Positions 12,441-63,489 of a stretch of 64,000 nt of DNA are shown here, in pieces. This DNA comes from Mobula hypostoma (lineage: Eukaryota): the NCBI RefSeq assembly GCF_963921235.1, contig NC_086097.1:63614001-63678000 (forward strand), written 5' to 3'. The position numbers were made by a program, and so were the translations under genes. Numbering within the stretch: position 1 is the stretch's first letter; every line of letters starts with the position of its first letter. The notes under the pieces were generated by a model that saw nothing but the letters and a program-made list of their open reading frames with translations, did not search any database and had not been told where the DNA came from.

Positions 12441-15400
12441 CACTGGGCAACAATTTTTTTGTTGCTTCCTCCGAATTATTTTCTGTTGAGTTTTTTTCAG
12501 CTTGAAGCTGAACACAAATATAATTTCAGACTACTTGTATCACACAGGAATTTGGAGAAACGCAAAATTAATTTTTATTCAATATAATGCATTTAATTGC
12601 ATAACAGTGTTGATGTTTTGAAATAATTTAACCAAGCTAAAACTGTTTTGTTGATGATTTTCATTTGTACTCTTTGACTGAGGTTTCTCGATTCAGTGTC
12701 CAACAATAATCAGCCAGCACTGATGGAATCCAGTTGCCCTGATACCGTTTCTCCAAGATCGTAATGTCCTGATGAAACCGAGGTTTGTAAAGAAGAAGTC
12801 TAACTGGGAATGCAGGAAATGAATCTTTAGTAACATGTTGTACTTCATGGTTTTGTATGCTTGAAGCATATTGTCAACCAGCTGCATCTGGTTTAGTGCT
12901 CTGTAGTTGCTAAGGAAATTTCCAACAACATCATTGAATGCCTTCAATGCGATTTTCTAGAAGTTCTTCGAATTTGTTGTCATGGATGGCCTGTTTCATT
13001 TGTGGACCAACAAAAATGCCTTCCTTAATCTTGGCATCAGTTATTCTGGGAAACATCTGTCTCAAAAATCAAAATCCTTGATAGTAATTTATAGCCTTTC
13101 TAAAACCTGTCTTGCCATGCAGCATCTGCCATGCCTGAACCGGTCCAGGCATGCCTGGACAGGATAGAAAGCTTAACAGCTTTCATTGTGGGCAACAATT
13201 TAATTGACTGGAAATAACAAATATTGGTGATTTTTTTTTAAAATAGTGCATGATAGGGAAATTTCATGGTTATTTTCATGGACGGAGAAGAGGAGAGCTG
13301 TTGTCATTGGAGACTCTTTAGTCAGGGCAGCAGACAGGAGATTTTGTGGACGTGAGCAGGACACCCGCATGGTTTGTTGCCTCCCGGGTGCCAGGGTCCG
13401 GGATGTCTCTGACCAGGTGCACAACATCCTGGTACGAGAGGGAAAGCAACCAGAAGTCGTGATACATGTTGGGACCAACGACATAGGCAGGAAGAGGGAT
13501 GAGGTCCTGAAGTGTGAGTTTCGGGAATTGGGCAGAAGGCTGAAGAACAGGACCTCAAGGGTGGTGTTCTCAGGATTGCTGCCAGTGCTATGTGACAGTG
13601 ATGGTAAGAATTGGAGGAGATGCCAGTTGAATGCGTGGCTGAGGAGTTGGTGCAGGGAGCAGGGGTTTAGATTTTTAGATCATTGGGATCTCTTCTGGGG
13701 AAGGTGGGACCTGTACAGATTGGATGGGTTGCACCTGAACTCGAGAGGGAGCAATATCCTTGCAGGTAGGTTTGCTAGCATGGTTTGGGAGGGTTTAAAC
13801 TAATTTGCAAGGGAGATGGGATCCAGTGCGGTAGAGCAGTGAAAGAAGTGCATGGAGTAAAGCCAGATCTAACATACAGAGAGGCTTTGAGGAAAGAGAA
13901 GCAGAATAAACGCTGTAAAGACAGTAAGGTAGAAGGGCTGAAATGTGTGTACCTCAGTGCAAGAAGCATCAGGAACAAAGGTGATGAACTGAGAGCTTGG
14001 ATACATACATGGAATTATGATGTAGTGGCTATTACACAGACTTGGCTGGCATCAGGGCAGGAATGGATTCTCAATATTCCTGGATTTCAGTGCTTTAAAA
14101 GGGATAGAGAGGGCGGAAAAAGGGGAGGAGGGGTGGCATTACTGGTCGAGGATACTATTACAGCTACAGAAAGGGTGGGTAATGTAGCAGGATCCTCTTC
14201 TGAGTCAGTATGGGTGGAAGTCAGGAACAGGAAGGGAGCAGTTACTCTATTGGGGGTATTCTATAGGCCCCCTGGTAGCAGCAGAGATACAGAGGAGCAG
14301 ATTGGGAGGCAGATTTTGGAAAGGTGCAAAAATAACCAGGGCTATTATCTTGGGTGACTTTAACTTCCCTAATATTGATTGGCACCTGATTAGTTCCAAG
14401 GGTTTAGATGGTGCAGAATTTGTTAAGTTTGTCCAGGACAGGTTCCTGTCACAGTATGTGGACAGGCCGACTAGGGGGAATGCCATACTAGATCTAGTAC
14501 TAGGTAATGAACCGGGTCAGGTCACAGATCTCTCAGTGGGTGAGCATCTGGGGGACAGTGACCACTGCTCCCTGGCCTTTAGCATTATCATGGAAAAAGA
14601 TAGAATCAGAGAGGACAGGAAAATTTTTAATTGGGGAAGGGCAAATTATTAGGCTATAAGGCTAGAACTTGTGGGTGTGAATTGGGATGATGTTTTTGCA
14701 GGGGAATGTACTATGGACATGTGGTCGATGCTTAGAGATCTCTTGCAGGATGTTAGGGATAAATTTGTCCCGGTGAGGAAGATAAAGAATGGTAGGGTGA
14801 AGGAACCATGGGTGACAAGTGAGGTGGAAAATCTAGTCAGGTGAAAGAAGGCAGCATACATGAGGTTTAGGAAGCAAAGATAAGATGGGTCTATTGAGGA
14901 ATATAGGGAAGCAAGAAAGGAGCTTAAGAAGGGGCCGAGAAGAGCAAGAAGGGGGCATGAGAAGGCCTCGGCGAGTAGGGTAAAGGAAAACCACAAGGCA
15001 TTCTTCAGTTATGTGAAGAAAAAAAGGATGACAGGAGTGAAGGTAGGACCGATTAGAGATAAAGGTGGGAAGATGTGCCTGGAGGCTTTGGAAGTGAGCG
15101 AGATCCTCAATGAATACTTCTCTTCGGTATTCACCAATGAGAAGGAACTTGATGATGGTGAGGACAATATGAGTGAGGTTGATGTTCTGGAGCATGTTGA
15201 TATTAAGGGAGAGGAGGTGTTGGAGTTGTTAAAATGCATTAGGACGGGTAAGTCCCCGGGGCCTGACGTAATTTTCCCCAGGCTACGCCACAAGGCGAGG
15301 GAAGAGATTGCTGAGCCTCTGGCTAGGATATTTATGTCCTCGTTGTCCACGGGAATGGTACCGGAGGATTGGAGGGAGGCGAATGTTGACCCCTTGTTCA

Positions 15401-16864
15401 AAAAAGTTAGTAGGGATAGTCCGGGTAATTATAGACCAGTGAGCCTTACGTCTGTGGTGGGAAAGCTGTTGGAAAAGATTCTTAGAGATAGGATCTCTGG
15501 GCATTTAGAGAATCATGGTCTGATCAGGGACAGTCAGCATGGCTTTGTGAAGGGCAGATCATGTCTAACAAGCCTGATAGAGTTCTTTGAGGAGGTGACC
15601 AGACATATAGATGAGGGTAGTGCAGTGGATGTGATCTATATGGATTTTAGTAAGGCATTTGACAAGGTTCCACACAGTAGGCTTATTCAGAAAGTCAGAA
15701 GGCATGGGATCCAGAGAAGTTTGGCCAGGTGGATGCAGAATTGGCTTGCCTGCAGAAGGCAGAGGGTCGTGGTGGAGGGAATACATTCAGATTGGAGGAT
15801 TGTGACTAGTGGTGTCCCACAAGGATCTGTTCTGGGACCTCTACTTTTCATGATTTTTATTAATGACCTGGATGTGGGGGTAGAAGAGTGGGTTGGCAAG
15901 TTTGCAGATGACACAAAGGTTGGTGGTGTTGTATATAGTGTAGAGGATTGTCAAAGATTGCAGAGAGACATTGACAGGATGCAGAAGTGGGCTGAGAAGT
16001 GGCAGATGGAGTTCAACCCGGAGAAGTGTGAGGTGGTACACTTTGGAAGAACAAACTCCAACGCAGAGTACAAAGTAAATGGCAGGATACTTGGTAGTTT
16101 GGAGGAGCAGAGGGATCTGGGGGTACATGTCCACAGATCCCTGAAAGTTGTCTCACAGGTGGATAGGGTAGTTAAGAAAGCTTATGGGGTGTTAGATTTC
16201 ATAAGTCGAGGGATAGAGTTTAAGGGTCGCGATGTAGTGATGCAGCTCTATAAAACTCTGGTTAGGCCACACTTGGAGTACTGTGTCCAGTTCTGGTCAC
16301 CTCACTATAGGAAGGATGTGGAAGCATTGGAAAGGGTACAGAGGAGATTTACCAGAAGGCTGTCTGGTTTAGAGAGTATGCATTATGATCAGAGATTAAG
16401 GGAGCTAGGGCTTTACTCTTTGGAGAGAAGGAGGATGAGAGGAGACATGATAGAGGTGTACAAGATAATAAGAGGAATAGATAGAGTGGATAGCCAGTGC
16501 CTCTTCCCCAGGGCACCACTGCTCAATACAAGAGGACATGGCTTTAAGGTAAAGGGTGGGAAGTTCAAGGGGGATATTAGAGGAAGGTTTTTACTCAGAG
16601 AGTGGTTGGTGCGTGGAATGCACTACCTGAGTCAGTGGTGGAGGCAGATACACTCGTGAAGTTTAAGAGACTACTAGACAGGTATATGGAGGAATTTAAG
16701 ATGGGGGCTTATATGGGAGGCAGAGTTTGAGGGTCAGCACAACATTGTGGGCCGAAGGGCCTGTACTGTGCTGTACTATTCTATGTTCTATGTTCTATCA
16801 CAAACACCAAATCAAGAAGATACACCCAAAAGTATTCATGTAGCAAAATCTTTGTTGTCCAGTG
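12441..16864 (-). mobile_element. Internally deleted Chapaev3 DNA transposon with both TIRs, split by a CR1 insertion
   Basis: TIRs CACTGGGCAACAA (12441) and TTGTTGTCCAGTG (ending 16864); flanks GAA/TAA resemble the 3-bp TWA TSD; ORF 12693-12947 AFNDVVGNFLSNYRA...LKIHFLHSQLDFF is the transposase C-terminus. Confidence 0.75.
13281..16796 (+). mobile_element. Near full-length young CR1 LINE: ORF1 SGNH esterase domain and ORF2 AP endonuclease plus RT, with a few stops and frameshifts
   Basis: ORF1 VVIGDSLVR...HVGTNDIG...DGLHLN; endonuclease GDFNFP and SDH; RT QHGF, DFSKAFD, GVPQGSVLGP, KFADD; (CTATGTT)n tail. Confidence 0.95.
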
Positions 16865-37442: not shown

Positions 37443-40026
37443 ACACAGTACAGCACAGTACAGGCCCTTTGGCCCACAATGTTGTGCTGACCCTCAAACC
37501 CTGCCTCCCATATAAGCCCCTACATTAAATTCCTCCATATACCTGTCTAGAAGTCTCTTAAATTTCTCTAGTGTATCTGCCTCCATCACTGACTCAGGCA
37601 GTGCATTCCACGCACCAACCACTCTCTGAGTAAAAAACCTTCCTCTAATATCCCCCTTGAACTTCCCACCCCTTACCTTAAAGCCATGTCCTCTTGCATT
37701 GAGCAGTGGTGCCCTGGGGAAGAGGTGCTGGCTATCCACTTTATCGATTCTTCTTAATATCTTGAAAACCTCTATCCTGTCTCCTTCCATCCTCCTTCTC
37801 TCCAAAGAGTAAAGCCCTAGCTCCCTTAATCTCTGATCATAATCCATACTCTCTAAACCTGGCAACATCCTGGTAAACCTCCCCTGTACCCTTTCCGATG
37901 CTTCCACGTCCTTCCTATAGTGAGGTGACCAGAACTGGACACAGTACTCCAAGTGCGACCTAACCAGAGTTTTATAGAGCTGCATCATTACATCGCGACT
38001 CTTAAACTCTATCCCTCGACTTATGAAAGCTAACACCCCATAAGCTTTCTTAACTACCCTATCCACCTGTGAGGCAACTTTCAGGGATCTGTGGACATGT
38101 ACCCCCAGATCCCTCTGCTCCTCCACGCTACCAAGTATCCTGCCATTTTCCTTGTACACTGCCTTGGAGTTTGTCCTTCCAAAGTGTACCACCTCACACT
38201 TCTCCGGGTTGAACTCCATCTGCCACTTCTCAGCACACTTCTGCATCCTATCAATGTCTCTCTGCAATCTTTGACAATCCTCTACACTATCTACAACACC
38301 ACCAACCTTTGTGCTATCTGCAAACTTGCCAACCCACCCTTCTATCCCCACATCCAGGTCATTAATAAAAATCACGAAAAGTAGAGGTCCCAGAACCGAT
38401 CCTTGTGGGACACCACTAATCACAACCCTCCAATCCGAATGTACTCCCTCCACCACGACCCTCTGCTTTCTGCAGGCAAGCCAATTCTGAATCCACCTGG
38501 CCAAACTTCCCTGGATCCCATTCCTTCTGACTTTCTGAATAAGCCTACCATGTGGAGCCTTGTCCAATGCCTTACTAAAATCCATATAGATCACATCCAC
38601 TGCACTACCCTCATCTATATGTCTGGTCACCTCCTCAAAGAACTCTATCAGTCTTGTTAGACACGATCTGCCCTTCACAAAGCCATGCTGACTGCCCCTG
38701 ATCAGACCATGATTCTCTAAATGCCCATAGATCCTATCTTTAAGAATCTTTTCCAACAGATTTCCCATCACAGATGTAAGGCTCACTGGTCTATAATTAC
38801 CCAGACTATCCCTACTACCTTTTTTGAACAAGGGGACAACATTCGCCTCCCTCCAATCCTCCAGTACCATTCCCGTGGACAACAAGGACATAAAGATCCT
38901 AGCCAGAGACTCAGCAATCTCTTCCCTTGCCTCATGAAGCAGCCTGGGGAATATTCCGTCAGGCACCGGGGACTTATCCGTCCTAATTTGTTTTAACAAC
39001 TCCAACACCTCCTCTCCCTTAATGTCAACATGCTACAGAACATCAACCTCACTCATATTGTCCTCACCGTCATCAAGTTCCCTCTCATTGGTGAATACCA
39101 AAGAGAAGTATTCATTGAGGACATCGCTTACTTCCACAGCCTCCAGGCACATCTTCCCACCTTTATCTCTAATCGGTCCTACCTTCACTCCTGTCATCCT
39201 TTTGTTCTTCACATAATTGAAAAATGCCTTGGGGTTTTCCTTTACCCTACTCGTCAAGGCCTTCTCATGCCCCCTTCTTGCTCTCCTCAGCCCCTTCTTA
39301 AGCTCCTTTCTTGCTACCCTATATTCCTCAATAGACCCATCTGATCCTTGCTTCCTAAACCTCATGTATGCTGCCTTCTTCCACTTGACTAGATTTTCCA
39401 CCTCACTTGTCAACCATGGTTCCTTCACCCTACCATTCTTTATCTTCCTCACTGGGACAAATTTATCCCTAACATCCTGCAAGAGATCCCTAAACATCAA
39501 CCACATGTCCACAGTACATTTCCCTGCAAAAACATCATCCCAATTCACACTCGCAATTTCTAGCCTTTTAGCCTCATAATTTGCCTTTCCCCAATTAAAA
39601 ATGTTCCTGCCCTCTCTGGTTCTATCCTTTTCCATGATAATGCTAAAGGCCAGGGAGCGGTGGTCACTGTCCCCCAGATGCTCACCCACTGAGAGATCTG
39701 TGACCTGACCCAGTTCGTTACCTAATACTAGACCTAGTATGGCATTCCCCCTTCTCGCTCTGTCCACAGACTGTGACAGGAATCCGTTCTGGACATGCTT
39801 AACAAACTCTGCCCTGTCTAAACCCTTGGAACTAATCTGGTGCCAATCAATATTAGGGAAGTTAAAGTCACCCATGATAATAACCCTGTTATTTTTGCAC
39901 CTTTCCAAATTCTGCCTCCCAATCTGATCCTCAGTATCCCTGCTGCTACCAGGGGGCCTATAGAATACTCCCAATAGAGTAACTGCTCCCTTCCTGTTCC
40001 TGACTTTCACCCATACTGACTCAAAA
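37443..40026 (-). mobile_element. Young CR1 LINE of the same family as 13281-16796, 5'-truncated in the endonuclease; the retained ORF2 is broken by one stop
   Basis: ORFs 39033-40010 and 37494-39008 are in the same frame and near-identical to the plus-strand copy; the RT motif reads KFADS. Confidence 0.95.
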
Positions 40027-54865: not shown

Positions 54866-55785
54866 TGTTAGATTGGACTGTATTTTATACTATTATCTAT
54901 ATACTTGTAACTATTCAGTGTGTTTTTAGTGGTTGTAATTACCTTTCTATCTTTCTAGAAACTTTTAGTTTCAGTGGTGCGTACCGCATTACTTGAATAG
55001 TGGCTATCTTATTAGCTAACTATTATCCACAGAAATTCGGTGGAATTACTGGTCTGTAGTGATCTCGTTGTTCATCACCTGCCACCAGAGTCTCTTCTTT
55101 TTCTCTCTGCACCTTTTCCCTTTCCCAAGTTTCCTTTGTTCTTGTGATACTTAATAAAACCATTGTAAGTAACAAGTTTCATGCCTCATTCTTGTTTCCA
55201 AAGAACCTAGGATCGCAAAAACATCAGGATTCAACAGTTTGGCATAGTCAGCAGGATGGTTGCAAAAATTTAAGGATTTGGAAGAACCCCAGATGAAGTG
55301 GAAAGTTTAAGCATGTAAAGTTAATACAAGGGAAGACCTTCTTTCTTATTTTCCTAACTGTCCAAGAAATCACCTAGTTCTTGCTTCACTACACCACCTA
55401 ATGGGAGTTAAGAATGAAGGAAAACTCTATTATACTTTGCTATTCTGGAAAAGTCAGATATGAACTAAGATTCAAATTGTACTCAATTCTATTTGTACTA
55501 CCTGTGGAGCACCAAAGAATTTTGTGTTTTAGAAAAACACCTTTCAATTCCAATCCAATAAGAAAAAAACATCATTTGCAAATCAATGATAGTCCAATTC
55601 CAATCCAATAATATCCTGATTGTAATCCAACAGCATTTCAATTGCAATCTAACAATATTTTGATACAATCCAATGGTATTTCAATTGTAGTCTAAGTGAT
55701 AAGAAGTACATACAAAATAACTGTTATGTGAGATCAAATTAAGACAATGGTCAAAATCGTAAAACCTATTACAGAAAAAGGGGGA

Positions 55786-55978
55786 CCACGAGAAAATCTG
55801 CAGATGCTAGAAATTCCAGCAACACACACAAAATGCTGGTGGAACGCAGCAGGCCAGGCAGCATCTGTAGGAAGAAGTACAGTCGACGTTTCGGGCCAAG
55901 ACCCTTCTTCAGTACTGTGACGAAAGGTCTCGGTCCGAAACATCGACTGTACTTCTTCCTATAGATGCTGCCTGGTCC
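55786..55978. mobile_element. 193-bp Penelope-derived insertion with two inverted hammerhead-containing arms
   Basis: 15-bp TSD ACAGAAAAAGGGGGA (55771-55785 and 55979-55993); arms 55852-55913 and 55914-55978 are reverse complements. Confidence 0.9.
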
Positions 55979-58900
55979 ACAGAAAAAGGGGGAGCTGAAT
56001 CTCCATTTGTTATGTTTGAACAGATAATTGAGGGTTTGAGTTCTTACCTGAATAAAATATTTCAATTTGATAAGATTAATGAAAAAAAGGCAGATAAAAT
56101 ATAGCATCAGTGTTGAGGCTATTAAGAAGGGTTGGGTTAAAATCCAGAGAGTGTCTGAGGAGAAAGAGGAGAAATAGATGGACGTTAGCTATCTTGTCAC
56201 AGTTAAAGAACCCAACACAGGCTCAGCTGGAAAGCTGGATACATGAGCTAACGGGAAAAGTGGTAAAGTTAACTGAATAAGTGAAAAAGGAAAGGGAAAA
56301 TTGTGATAAACTACAAAAGCAGTTAACAGGTACAGTATAAAGTCTAAGAAGCAAATCATTGCATTAACTGAATGAGTGAAAAATAACATAATAAATGTAA
56401 TCCAACCAAAATGCATTGTATGGAGCTTCAAAGTACACAGAAGCAAATTCAGAAGACCCAGCAGGGACCTCAGGTGGGCAACCCTCCCAGTGATGCTCCT
56501 CTTGGGAAATGCCCCCTACATTGAACAGTCCTCCAAGACATCACCACAGTCCAAACTCCAAGGAATTGCCGTATGGACATAGACTTTACAGTGACCTCTA
56601 GTGACTCATGTGATGAAACAATAGGATTGGCAGCCATGTTATGACTTCCCCAATAAACAGCAAGGAACTGAAGTCATGCCGGACAGAAGATGGAATCAAT
56701 GAAACAAGATAAATGGTCTTTCATCAACTACCTGAACTAAAAAAGATTGATAAATAGTCCAGAAAGGTTCTATATCTTAAAAAAGGAAGTTTAAAGATTG
56801 GGGCTGAACTTCAACTAATTAAGAACATATACAAATTGCACCCATATGATGGCATCCAAATTTTGGCTACCATCTTGTTTTCTCAGCAAATCGGACAGTT
56901 TTCTCATAGAGTTGATGATGACATGGGAGATGATAATCAAAATGTACAAAGTGTTTGGGATGTTACTGAGAGGTGGTTGGAAGAACAGACCCCAATACAG
57001 AATGATTGCAAGAAAATAGTTGATTGTAAGCAAAAGATTTCTGAAGATATTTCTGAATATGAGGAATGCAACAGGGCAACATGGTTAACTTATCCAAGAC
57101 TTCTGGGAGTAAATGAAGATACCATGAAGGATCTACATATGGTCCTGGAGATCAACTTTAATGGATAGCTTGAAACCAGATTTCGCCAAAGTGATGAAGC
57201 TGACAAAAATAGAAGTGAAGCTGGTGTTCCATATAGTGAGCTAGTACAAGCCACCAGACAAGTGGAATGAGATATCGAAATCTGAATAAGATCATTATAT
57301 GTTCATCAGTTACCTATTGATCAACAGCCACTGGCCATGGGTCAACAGCCACAGCTACTGCAGGTGAGTCAACAGCAAACACCCATTAGCCAACAGAAAA
57401 AGCAGGACTGGAATTCATCGTGTGCACCACAACAATTTCAATATGAGTTGTTGGAATAAAAAAACAAAATGGACAACGGAAGAAAGCTCAACAAGAAGTT
57501 CGATCCTCTGCCCCTCAAAAGTTGCAAGATCTTGATCTGATTATAGAGTTTCAACAAACAACAAAGCCCTTGATAGTGCAAAAGCCAGATGGCTTATATG
57601 TTAATTTAGTGATTGGGAATGAATGTGCTGAATTCTTATTGGACATGGAGAACTATGATGACCATGACTGGGCATGGATAGTAACATACCATGAAGATGA
57701 AAATTATTACAAATAAATGCCTCTATTGAACTCAGATATGATTCTGTACATTGCTAGCTCCTCAACAATTGATGGAAGATTTCAAATGTTTCTGGAACTG
57801 TAGTGCTGGCATCAGAAAGCATGGCTCCTGGTACATCTGCAAAACAGGAAAAACTGAAAGGCCTCATTGAAGCCTGTAAGCTTGCAGAAGGAAGATGAGC
57901 TAATATCTACACAGTCTCTCGATATGCTTTTGGAGTTGTTCATGACTTTGGAATCTTACGGAGGCCAAGGGGATTTCTTACGGCTGAAGTAATCCCAATC
58001 AAGAATGACCAACTATTATAGGAACTCATGAATGTTACACAATTGCCATCAGAAGTAGCTGTATTGAAGTGTAAAAGCCACTCCAAAATGACAACAATAA
58101 AAAGCTGTGGAAATGTATTCACAGATAAAATTGCAAAAAAAAAGCAGCACAGGAAGGGATAAAAGAAATAAAACAAGTAAAAGAAGTTAAAGAAAAGTCA
58201 AAGAATTAAAAGTAATGGGAACGTATGCAGTGAACCTGACAACTGAAATTTTGGAAACAAATTGAACTCTTATTACAGATGAATATACAAGATATTTGAG
58301 AGATGCAAGCTCGATGCTCTAAGAAAAGTGGTTCTGGATGGAGAATGGTAGGAGATTAAAGAGTGATGGAGCATGGAGATATGCACTAGTCATAGACTAG
58401 TAGCTCCAATTACATCGCTTGCTATCCTAGCACAGAAGATACACTCTCTAGGACACATTGGAGAGGAAAAGATTATCAGCAGGTTTTTCCATTGGTGGCA
58501 GAATACAAAGCTCAGAGCACAAACTTGGGAAACGTTTGAAAGATGCATGATATGCCAGAAAACAAATCCTGGAGCAGTGGAAAAGCTACCACGACGAAGT
58601 GTTCCTATCCCCAACTAGTCCATTTTTACACATATGGGTGGACTATATTACTTTGCCAAAGTGTCAAAGATACTCAGATGTTTTAGTAATAGTGGATAAG
58701 TTTTCAAGATGGGTGGAAACTATTCCAGCAAGGAAAGCCACTGCCACTCACACAGCAAAAACTCTGATCAAAGACTATACTCCTAGACGGGGATTGCCAT
58801 GTCACATTGAATCTGAACAAGGAACACATTTCACTCGGAGTGTTTGTCAGGAATCATGTTGACTAAAGAATATTGAATGGTCTTTCCATTAAACAGATGA

Positions 58901-59723
58901 ATGGGATCATCAAACAACGACAAACTAAGTATCATGAGGGAAGTGTACTACAGTCTACGAATCTTCCTATGGTCTTAATTAGAATCAAAGCAACCCAAAA
59001 AAACAGAAAATTAAATTAAGTCCATTCAAGATAGTAACAGGGGAGCCTATGTCACTGCCAGCAGCTCTTGATCTTAGAGAGGCTGGTATACACAATATGG
59101 CAGACAATTTAGCTACCTATTGTGTGAAATTAACCCAAGCTGTACAGTCTGCTTCTCAGCAAATTTCTGCTGCTTGGAGTGGTCCAACAGAAGGAGGATA
59201 TGTCCCAATTCCTGGTGAGTGGTCCAGATCAAAAAACCTCATAAGAAGCCACTGGAGCTTACTTATCAAGTGTAGGTAACTAATAATTCAGCATAGAAAA
59301 GTAGGTAAAGGTAAGTGGATGCATGCTAGCCACTCCAAGAGAGCTAAGGTAGCACCTGTCAAGGACAACAAGTGCTGATGTTAATGTGTTAGTAATCTCT
59401 GACTTAGTGTCTATGCTACTGGGCTACAGTGAACAAATCACTAACCCACCAGAAGACTTCAAACAGATTTGATAACTGTGATATCATGTGTCACGTGTAA
59501 GAACATGATTGGACAGGGTTCTGAGCATGCGCAGAAATGAGAGAACGATCAAGAAACTTGTATGGTGAAAATGTGGTTGCTGTTTGCTGTTGTAAATAAA
59601 AGTTCTAGTTCTTATTCTTCCAGAATGTGGTTTGTTCTTAGTAACCCATGGTACGTATAAAGAACACAACATGGTGTCAGAAGTCACTCTGGAAGAATAA
59701 TACGTTGCACTAACACGGGAGGA

Positions 59724-60960
59724 GTGAAGATAATCGAAAAAAAGAGCGTGAGTTGTTTTGGTGTGCTAACGGTTTTAAAAAATGGAAGTTTTGCAACCCC
59801 CATTGATGTTCAGCTGACTGGAAACATAGCCGAAAAATGTAAAAGATTTAAACAGCATTTTGAAATGTATTTATCGGCGATCAGAGCAGATGTGAAATCG
59901 GAAGAAACAAAAGCTGCAATTCTACTCCACGTAATAGATGACAATGCAATTGAGGTATATAACCATTTTACTTTTGAAAATGGAGATAATTTGAATCTAA
60001 AAGCGATAATGGACAAATTTGACGCATTTTCTATACCGAAGCGCAATGTGACATATGAATCGTACAAATTTTTCAAATGTTGGCAGAGATCTGGTGAAAC
60101 GATTGATCAGTTTGTTACGGAGTTGAGAAACCACAGTAAAACATGCCAGTTTGCAGAACTGACAGACTCTCTCATTACAGACAAAATTGTTCACAGCATT
60201 CGGGATAATGCTCTGAGAGGAAGGCTGTTAAGAGAACAAGACGTAAATTTGGAAAAAGGTTTGATTCTCTGCAAAGCTTCGGAAACCGTGACCTTGCAGG
60301 CTAAAGAGCTTTTTATTGAGAACTGCAACTTACACGCTGTGTGCGAACATATTAGAAAAGATAATAAAACAACAACAAAACTCACAGAGAGCAAGACGTC
60401 GTCTGAGAGAAAAAAGTCGTGTAATCGCTGTGGGCGGCAGCACCAGCCAAAACAGTGTCCAGCGTATGGGAAAATGTGCAACGACTGCAGTAAGAGTAAT
60501 CATTTTTCACGCTGTTGCAGAAGTAGAAAGAAAATAAAACAAGTAAGTGCAGTGCTTGAAAATGAACTGGAGGAGTTTTATATAGATGTGCTTTGTGAAA
60601 ACAAGCAAAGTAAGATTGACTGGACTATTCCATTGCAAGTGAACCAAAACAATATTCTGTTTAAACTTGATACTGGAGCACAAGTAAATGTTCTTGCAGA
60701 ATCTGAGTTTAATGCATTAAAGCCAAGACCAAAGTTATATAAGACAAATATAAAAGTGACTGGGTATTCAGGTGCAGACATTCCAGTTAAAGGAACATGT
60801 GTGGCAAAAGAATATATGGAATATATGTGTGGCAAAAGTATCACACAAAAATATTGTGCACACGCTTTCATTTGTGGTGGTGCCAAAGAATGTACAGTCA
60901 ATACTGGGTTTATCTGCCTGTGAGAGACTGAATTTGGTGAAAAGAGTGTTAGTCCTGGAT
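59724..60960 (+). pseudogene. Gypsy Gag-protease
   Basis: ORF 59724-60923: CNRCGRQHQPKQC, CNDCSKSNHFSRC, LFKLDTGAQVNVL; continues after a 28-bp frameshifting duplication as ...[17 protein letters not shown]. Confidence 0.9.
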
Positions 60961-61119
60961 ATTGAAGAAGTTAAAGCACAAGTGAAGGAATTGAGAAGTT
61001 TTATTGAAATAATGAAGTCTCAGCATAAAAAAGAGGTTACACAGTTAACGAGTGAATTAGATGAAGAAAAGAAGATTCGTATTTCATTACAAATGGAAGA
61101 AAAAGGAATTAAGAAAGCT
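60961..61119 (+). pseudogene. SH3KBP1: Transduced fragment of the SH3KBP1/CIN85 C-terminal coiled coil
   Basis: [53 protein letters not shown] aligns without gaps to the human CIN85 C-terminus as I recall it ([53 protein letters not shown]). Confidence 0.85.
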
Positions 61120-62093
61120 ACAGTCCTTGAAGTACAACCCAGATGATACATGGTCCAAACAGAGGAGGGAGAAGTGTTAAGAAGAAATCGCAAAGACCTC
61201 AAGAAAGAGCCAACTTCAGAGTTTCAGTTAACTGATGCAGACCAGACAAAACATGGAAATAACAACGAAACACAAGAACTGTGTGAACCACTTAGAAGGT
61301 CTACTCGTGTTCATAAACCCCCAGAGAGACTGGTAGTGACATGTTAAATTATGTATTTGTTCTGATCAATATTGCTAATTGTTTTTCTTTTTAAGGAAAG
61401 GAAGATGTGCTATCACGTGTCACGTGTAAGAATGTGATTGTACAGAGTTCTGAGCATGCGTAGAAATGACAGAATGATCGAGAAACTTGTATGGTGAAAA
61501 TGTGGTTGCTGTTTTCTGTTGTAAATAAAAGTTCTAGTTCTTATTCTTCCAGAATATGATTTGTTCTTAGTAACCCACGGTACATATAAAGAACACAACA
61601 ATAATGACTGGACCTTATGGTGCTGTTACATTTTAACCAAATTTTTCTACTCACAACATGCCAATTAAGATGACTCACAATGTGTACTTGCGGGTATCAG
61701 ATAAATTTACTAATATTGTTAATGTTTCTAGCTGTCAGGATGCCACACACTTCAAAAGAAGTATCAGAGAGATTTAAAATGTATATGCGGCTTTAGAAAG
61801 AGTGAGCAATGACACTGCTGGTGCCTTGGAGGAAATAACAACAGAAATAGTTACTATGCATAAGATGGTTTGTCAAAATCAGATATTCTCTCATAGGCAA
61901 GGAGCTGACAGGTCTGACAATGAAACTGATTTAGCTGATCATATTTGTAAATAAATAGCTCAAATACATCAATTTGATGAATGATATTTCTTTGACTGGA
62001 TTCAATAAACTCTAGGAAGATGGGGTTACTCAATAATTATAATATTTGTCCTGACATGCCTTATCATAATTTATGTCTTTTTTATTGTATAAG

Positions 62094-62591
62094 TGTAGCC
62101 CCCTGGTAATCCTTAGGGTGGCTCCATTCGCTGTCGTCTAGGGAACAGCCCTCAGCCCCGCCAAACTGGGTAATTAAGTTTGTGTGGATGCTGTGTGATG
62201 TACCCCACCCCGCCAAATAACAGACAATACACCATATACGATTAAATGAATTACAGTTTATGGATATTACTGGAACTATATAATTAATAGAGATAAAATA
62301 TAAAAGGAAAATAAAAGGTGCCACACTTATCAAAGTTCAATCTCTTCATACACAAACAGCTGGAGCTCTAGTAACGATCCTTTCTTCGCCATTCGATCCC
62401 CTCTGACCACCTCGACCTGCCGCCTGGGACCACAAGAAAGAATAACATGGACACCCATTGGTTCAATGACTCTCTTATCAATAATATAACCCAAACAATC
62501 TACCAGCAAGAGAACTTTCTCAGCATTTAACAGAACAAAGAAGCCATTTTAATTAGCCTACACAGTAACATAAAAGAAGAAACCCCTTACA
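62094..62591. mobile_element. Solo LTR (498 bp) inserted in the ERV env 3' region
   Basis: TGTA...TACA termini, 4-bp TSD TAAG (62090-62093 and 62592-62595); related to 5904-6499. Confidence 0.85.
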
Positions 62592-63489
62592 TAAGGAAAT
62601 CATTAATACAGCAATTCAAACTCAGACAAGTGCACCTATTTACAAAGGTAATCTACCTAACTCTGATATAATCCTATGAATACCCTATGATGTTTCCATA
62701 TCTTGGGTGAACTTTTTAATTATTTTATACTTAACATAGGTACCACAAGTTTTTCTGCCTCTGAATTTTCAGATGTAATGATTCTAAATGTGTGATATAG
62801 AATCAAAGGGGTGAATGTTGGATCGGACTGTATAATTGTTATTTCACTTGCAGTTTAACTTTCTTATGATTATTTGTATTTTAAATCATATCCAATATAC
62901 ATATAATTTGTACTTTAGTGATTACAGTTGCCTTTGTACATTTTTGGAAACGTCCTAGTTTCAGTAGTGGGTATCACATTACTTGAATTGGGACTATCTT
63001 GTTGGTTAACTGTTATCCATGGAAATTCAATGGAATTAGTGGTCTATTATAAAAAGACCAGACCATCTTAGTTTGATCTTTTTGTTCTTCCTTTGCCACT
63101 AAGGTCTCTTCTTTTACTCTCTCCTCTCTTTCCATTCCCCTCATTTCTTTTGTTCTTGTAACACTTAATAAAAAAAGTTTTATGCCTCATTCTTGATTTC
63201 TAAAGAACCCTGGATTGCAAAAACATCAGGATCCAACACCCGTTTATTGTTATTCTGTTGACTCTCTGTAAACCAATCCTCAATCCAAGCCAGTATATTG
63301 CTTTCTCTTCTCTTGTTGTTGTTGTTTATATAATCTCTTGTGGCACCTGGTAGAGTCTTGCAAAAGGTCCAAATCTATCACAATCACTGTTCTGTCCTGA
63401 TCTATTCTGCTAGCTGTAACTCAAAAATTCTGACAGAATGATCAAATATGTTTTCCTTTCATAAGTCCATATTTTCCATGTTTCCCCCC

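Follow-up and report, generated by a model that had tools for sequence, protein, structure and literature searches.

We analysed a 64,000-nt window of the Mobula hypostoma genome that holds, on its forward strand, a single copy of a Ty3/gypsy LTR element at 59477-61600 (2124 bp, or 2.1 kb). The 5' LTR (195 nt, TG...CA, 59477-59671) and the 3' LTR (61406-61600) are 92% alike, with 15 differences in 195 positions and a K2P distance of 0.082. They are bounded by a 5-bp target-site duplication whose left copy (59472-59476) agrees with the right copy (61601-61605) in four of five letters. A primer-binding site starting with TGG (59672-59684), which may be of the tRNA-Leu type, follows the 5' LTR, and a polypurine tract in which all 13 letters are purines (61393-61405) precedes the 3' LTR; ARAGORN found no tRNA in the 64-kb window. 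Paired TG...CA LTRs, a short target duplication, a primer-binding site and a polypurine tract are the Ty3/gypsy features present here, and the PR-RT-RH-IN domain order is found in an intact relative, P0003. Presumably the element belongs to the Mag-like clade.

The gypsy copy was inserted into an older, decayed retrovirus-like element (54925-63238, forward strand), whose terminal repeats (54925-55236 and 62914-63238) are 71% alike and which retains integrase remnants at 58367-58862 (rve, E 3e-9). One contig in each of two DNA sequencing runs, X1 and X5, carries an insertion-free joint between 59465 and 61651. A putative envelope-transmembrane-like remnant, picked out by reading, may lie at about 61600-62080 within the older element; a Pfam search of 61778-61951 gave no match. 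Elsewhere in the window, a 2.26-kb inverted repeat pair (14329-16592 and 37633-39896, 93% alike) probably represents two LINE copies.

The internal part of the gypsy copy begins with Gag (59782-60620), in which two CCHC-like knuckles (60420-60515) can be read from the sequence. An aspartic protease and a short linker follow (60621-60960), with a DTG motif at 60669-60677; the Pfam match of the protease (PF13650, E 0.004) lies below the curated cut-off, and it is 74-91% identical to the proteases of P0002 and P0028-P0030. Next come 53 codons of captured host sequence (60961-61119) and the C-terminal tail of an integrase (61120-61347), which matches the C-termini of P0002 and P0003. The latter is an intact gypsy polyprotein of 1294 aa, with PR-RT-RH-IN (Pfam) in one frame. 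Its Gag and protease align with the window at 53% (by tblastn, over residues 7-350), and its last 70-odd codons align too. Nothing in the window corresponds to residues ~392-1212, where P0003 has its reverse transcriptase (RT), RNase H and integrase core. The host piece substitutes for an internal part of the ORF and is not an insertion into an intact one, and the window copy reads as a non-autonomous Ty3/gypsy derivative lacking RT, RNase H and the integrase core.

The captured piece encodes the C-terminal coiled coil of SH3KBP1/CIN85 without the last four host residues. It matches the solved human CIN85 coil (5abs, 2n64) with an E value of 4e-14, begins at the first turn of that coil, and shares 47 of its 53 residues (89%) with the SH3KBP1 of Mobula and of Pristis. 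A host exon junction falls at 61092/61093: one contig in each of runs X15 and X18 has a loose end at 61092 with an intron starting in GT, and the Callorhinchus isoform P0019 departs from the coil at the same residue. The piece crosses this junction without an intron and was therefore captured from spliced RNA. The SH3KBP1 sequence just upstream of the coil occurs with or without three codons (SDK), as seen in loose ends before 60961 in X15 and X18 and in P0007, which suggests an alternative splice acceptor that may lie near the capture point.

An earlier note on this DNA had reported that the copy is dead and that three breaks interrupt an otherwise continuous frame, and on re-checking the sequence we found its coordinates correct. 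The C-terminal half of the protease, the coil and the integrase tail share one frame (60760-61146), closed by a single TGA (61144-61146) beyond which it continues to the native stop at 61345-61347. At the other end, the start ATG at 59782 reads MEVLQPP, matching the N-terminus of P0003 (MQALQPP), and the frame breaks near 59805-59811, as had been noted. The remaining lesion, which shifts the frame within the protease, had been described as a 28-bp duplication near 60811-60838. A lesion is indeed present (60797-60838), consisting not of a tandem 28-bp repeat but of a 14-nt direct repeat (period 28) around 14 other letters. With these three breaks, the locus contains no intact ORF. Its private changes, 17 non-synonymous and 3 synonymous, match the ratio of sites (p 0.78); they are the 20 of 28 listed coding differences at which more than 90% of X1 depth disagrees with the window, and those 28 lie among the 40 letter differences listed of 370. 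The window copy decayed neutrally after insertion.

A chimeric family in rays

The copy belongs to a multi-copy, non-autonomous Ty3/gypsy family of stingray-type rays. Part of the element is present in 20 of the 24 listed sequencing runs (seven organisms). The summed depth of the coil in the two DNA runs is 7442 and 25262, compared with 9.1 and 48.8 for the insertion-free joint, figures that do not give a copy number but exclude a single copy. Six coil positions were listed, and at these each DNA run has 16-30 contigs with a letter that also occurs in runs guessed to be RNA. The earlier note would have given up its fusion had only one copy existed, with a neutrally evolving coil; we found many distinct coil-bearing contigs. 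Their occurrence in two organisms, the 3' junction shared with P0028 and the copy's own target duplication all point to secondary retrotransposition of the chimera.

Protein searches returned three stingray gene models in which the same protease is fused to host pieces (three of seven matches, and the top three of 81). In P0028, from Hemitrygon akajei, the protease and the first part of RT are followed by about 125 residues from the C-terminus of SH3KBP1, and the coil-to-tail junction equals that of the window; most of Gag is missing, and the model stops early within the tail. In P0029 (H. akajei) and P0030 (Hypanus sabinus), a Rabaptin coil follows the protease and the CIN85 coil comes next, joined at most two codons from the 5' junction of the window copy and the start of the structural coil. 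P0029 continues with more Rabaptin and the integrase tail and is annotated in RefSeq as 'rab GTPase-binding effector protein 1-like', that is, as a RABEP1-like host gene. P0030 has a frame shift inside the coil. In all three models there is an ascertainment bias towards an intact frame, and predicted introns may be concealed in them. The host piece of P0028 has 121 identities to Mobula SH3KBP1, 116 to H. akajei's own gene, 116 to Pristis and 104 to Narcine; since it is closest to Mobula, the capture probably predates some Hemitrygon-specific changes.

Longer-protein searches (26 and 5 matches) contained no full-length Gag-PR-coil-tail protein, an absence that weighs little. Metagenomes yielded 25 loci, all with distant CIN85/CD2AP-like coils (40-49%) and none matching P0003, and a scan of viral contigs for the element found none. 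P0035, a NACHT protein, was dropped as a relative, having matched only by generic coiled-coil composition.

Gene models of this kind might suggest that the fusion acted on the host, either as a dominant-negative form of CIN85 or as a domesticated gene, and both the closeness of the coil to the host's own (89%) and the three RefSeq accessions under which P0028 appears, probably reflecting several transcript models at its locus, would be in keeping with this. We consider it very improbable. The window copy, with its three breaks, decayed neutrally, P0028 is missing most of Gag and has a short tail, P0030 is frame-shifted in the coil, and each gene model forms a cluster of one.

The lesions of the window copy are largely its own. 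At the internal stop (61144-61146), related contigs disagree with this copy over 99.9% of their depth in each DNA run (51 and 43 contigs), and at the 5' frameshift (59808) 72% and 84% of depth differ in length in the two runs. The protease lesion is missing from all three chimeric gene models, which run through it; it is not among the listed joints (15 of 44) or indels, and its absence in relatives rests on these three proteins. Because the stop and the 5' frameshift are rare in related sequence and the protease lesion is absent from the gene models, the family frame was probably open. Lesions common to the copies would, according to the earlier note, have spoken against a translated fusion, and the stop and the 5' frameshift instead differ in most related sequence. 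The note had also inferred an ancestor encoding one chimeric polyprotein. An open frame of Gag, protease, host piece and integrase tail is indeed most likely for the family. Support does not extend to the exact short fusion as that ancestor: P0028 has a longer capture with the same 3' junction, and the 5' junction of the window copy is bridged by no listed contig.

Junctions and the origin of the frame

The 3' switch point (61112-61119) lies within seven to eight letters that the host K-K-A codons, as deduced from protein, have in common with the plain element, and these letters are read in one frame in both. Loose ends at 61129 in X1, X15 and X18 go with this switch point. At the 5' end, the long form seen in P0028 has E-V-I common to both partners at the protein level, and the partners of the window copy's short junction share at most about one letter. 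None of the listed pieces (32 of 9229, and 24 of 878 loose ends) bridges this short protease-coil junction; in X1, ten contigs part from the window copy at 60959 and continue as plain element, and nine join it at 60961, coming from a longer stretch of SH3KBP1. Among the listed pieces (32 of 9229), two runs guessed to be RNA bridge neither junction, which has no bearing on expression.

How surprising is it that both junctions are in frame? The earlier note put the chance at about 1 in 9, which is too small, because short words that two coding sequences have in common tend to lie in the same frame. Among words that the coil shares by chance with the window's retroelement coding DNA, 77 of 169 of at least 6 nt are in frame, as are 24 of 51 of at least 7 nt and 12 of 16 of at least 8 nt. 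Two in-frame microhomology junctions accordingly have a chance of ~0.21-0.56.

Rearrangements within the family provide a further view of the frame. Among the 15 of 44 joints listed, four distinct ones fall in the coding region and have a known filler; three of these keep the frame (p 0.11), and the two of greatest depth are among the three. One of these two, in X5 (60775-60833, depth 864), deletes part of the protease in frame. The second defines a subfamily in two organisms (X1 and X5) in which the middle of the coil is joined to the tail (61058-61191) and the C-terminal half of the coil is lost; its 12-nt filler is the reverse complement of tail positions 61180-61191, and it is in frame in X1. 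The X5 version carries an extra shift that puts it out of frame and was left out of the count of four. The joints give a weak signal, short of significance in this small sample, that the frame was kept. All four Rabaptin junctions of P0029, a model selected for being in frame, also keep it.

These observations bear on whether translation was selected at all. The first frame might have come from microhomology alone, with the hybrid spreading as an RNA parasite and the short junction representing a chance in-frame deletion, possibly after insertion. The odds just given for two microhomology junctions are compatible with such a history. So are the near lack of shared letters at the short junction, where the frame would be kept one time in three, its absence from the listed pieces, and the way X1 leaves at 60959 and enters at 60961 with other sequence. 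We nevertheless find this account doubtful. The Rabaptin-CIN85 models join CIN85 almost at this codon, and a short form that was itself mobile would explain this most simply; the P0029 junctions and the two highest-depth rearrangements are in frame; and Gag and protease are still readable throughout the family.

We think it reasonably probable, instead, that the window holds a dead copy produced by a known process, template-switch capture by an LTR element, in which the frame was kept and the coil was mostly a passenger. The first step is seen in the comparison with P0003: a one-frame Gag-PR-RT-RH-IN element was stripped of RT, RNase H and the integrase core, and a spliced SH3KBP1 coding piece stands in their place. 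For this to happen, spliced host mRNA would have been co-packaged, and RT would have changed templates at two short words common to both partners (E-V-I where RT begins, K-A within the integrase tail), so that about 125 codons were captured. The hybrid then multiplied, as related genomes attest, with RT and integrase probably supplied by intact relatives; we infer such helpers because the LTRs, primer-binding site and polypurine tract are whole. A later in-frame deletion of about 138 codons may have left the 53-codon coil of the window copy. A long, P0028-like capture followed by such a deletion is the simplest history, and the joining of CIN85 near the same codon in P0029 and P0030 hints that the short form may itself have been mobile. 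The frame could have survived through microhomology between coding sequences and through an advantage to RNAs translated as far as the native stop, owing either to Gag acting in cis or to RNA stability. Neutral decay after insertion, evident in the private changes, completes the series.

Is the coil more than a passenger?

A passenger coil might persist simply because it adjoins the fixed 3' junction, so that deletions from the 5' side leave it until last. Against this stands the landing of two different 5' junctions within two codons of the structural start of the coil. The earlier note had proposed that the coil could have altered particle assembly or interfered with host CIN85. One copy alone suggests constraint on the coil: P0028 has no changes among 53 coil residues and 13 among 115 elsewhere (p 0.01, at the protein level). 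Pooling of four copies does not bear it out, since 11 of 170 coil residues depart from the Mobula host sequence and the C-terminal half of the protease has 8 private changes in 172 (p 0.49), two measures that are not identical.

A working coil could operate as follows. Placed behind the protease, a trimerising CIN85 coil would replace the clustering otherwise provided by RT and integrase and would drive protease activation or Gag assembly; deletions sparing precisely the coil would then have had an advantage. Besides the conservation in P0028, this would account for a window piece whose start coincides with the first turn of the solved structure, and for a Rabaptin cargo in the same slot that is also a coiled coil. 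The accessible part of one study reports that a leucine zipper placed C-terminal to the HIV-1 protease raises Gag cleavage, and also that it lowered particle yield (PMC3291649); trimerisation of the CIN85 coil is described in the available text of another (PMC10786037). The lowered yield counts against a benefit, as do the lack of extra constraint in the pooled copies and the subfamily in two organisms that lost the C-terminal half of the coil. Furthermore, the coil-coding DNA is 69% purine and resembles that of the element (59-62%), and so offers more switch points. On balance, a working coil seems to us unlikely, with some chance of being right.

A broader form of this idea, which we put forward tentatively and at similarly low probability, is that host coiled coils (CIN85, Rabaptin) repeatedly replaced the RT-RNase H-integrase region in frame and were kept by selection for clustering Gag-protease in place of Pol. 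If this were true, helper-dependent elements would owe their success over their autonomous parents to oligomerisation modules taken from the host, and some of the most abundant retrocopy families of cartilaginous fish would be explained. A 2026 preprint, in the portion available to us, names MIPOL1, SUDS3, SDF2L1, SLU7 and ZNF276 among the leading parent genes of retrocopies in cartilaginous fish and links the number of retrocopies to non-LTR elements (bioRxiv 10.64898/2026.06.26.734816). Gypsy capture may account for some of these retrocopies, which would then have been counted before the mechanism was recognised.

Comparison with known captures of host mRNA

The observation is real, and both the capture and the open-frame family are well supported, at a locus that is now dead. 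Acutely transforming retroviruses are one parallel: they depend on helpers and carry host coding sequence fused in frame to gag in place of pol, as gag-onc. In the ray family there is neither an envelope nor infection, and the cargo is just the oligomerising end of an adaptor, without a growth-promoting domain.

A closer likeness is offered by the chimeras of animals formed by LTR-mediated retroposition (Tan et al., 2016; PMC5131818). As described in the available sections of that paper, a partial, intron-less host mRNA replaces an internal part of the ORF, microsimilarity is found at the switch points of 25 of 29 junctions, and the cargo is in frame with its parent gene in 14 of 17 cases; multi-gene chimeras and further rounds as non-autonomous elements are also reported. 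The ray family shares the intron-less host piece, the ORF replacement, the multi-gene chimeras and the secondary mobilisation, and perhaps also the microsimilarity at switches. It differs in having been amplified in several ray genomes, in carrying cargo that is in frame with its own Gag-protease and integrase tail, and in holding an alternative cargo, Rabaptin, in the same slot. The same source also mentions maize Bs1, an LTR element in whose ORF parts of several host genes are joined, some of them in frame (PMC5131818). Bs1 differs in being a plant element that is reported as a chimeric gene, whereas translation of the ray fusion is a prediction. Together with the crocodilian case below, it is the nearest amplified relative in kind.

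Among vertebrates, crocodilian endogenous retroviruses are reported, in the part of the account accessible to us, to carry mRNAs of KIT-ligand and nectin3 whose ORFs are intact and under purifying selection (PMC4299795). Like the ray family, these are germ-line lineages that multiplied with captured host mRNA. Unlike them, the ray family is gypsy, its fragment is fused into the polyprotein, and in the pooled copies that fragment is no more conserved than the protease. A literature search of titles and the openings of abstracts, with subscription journals outside its scope, found no paper describing an LTR element family that carries SH3KBP1.

The finding also matters for annotation, since RefSeq models such as P0029 look like retroelement chimeras. 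Above all, the ray family offers a clean vertebrate germ-line case in which a retroelement captures a spliced host mRNA in frame, multiplies and reshuffles its cargo. With many copies and independent junctions, it becomes countable whether host pieces are kept for their protein, for their reading frame or by accident.
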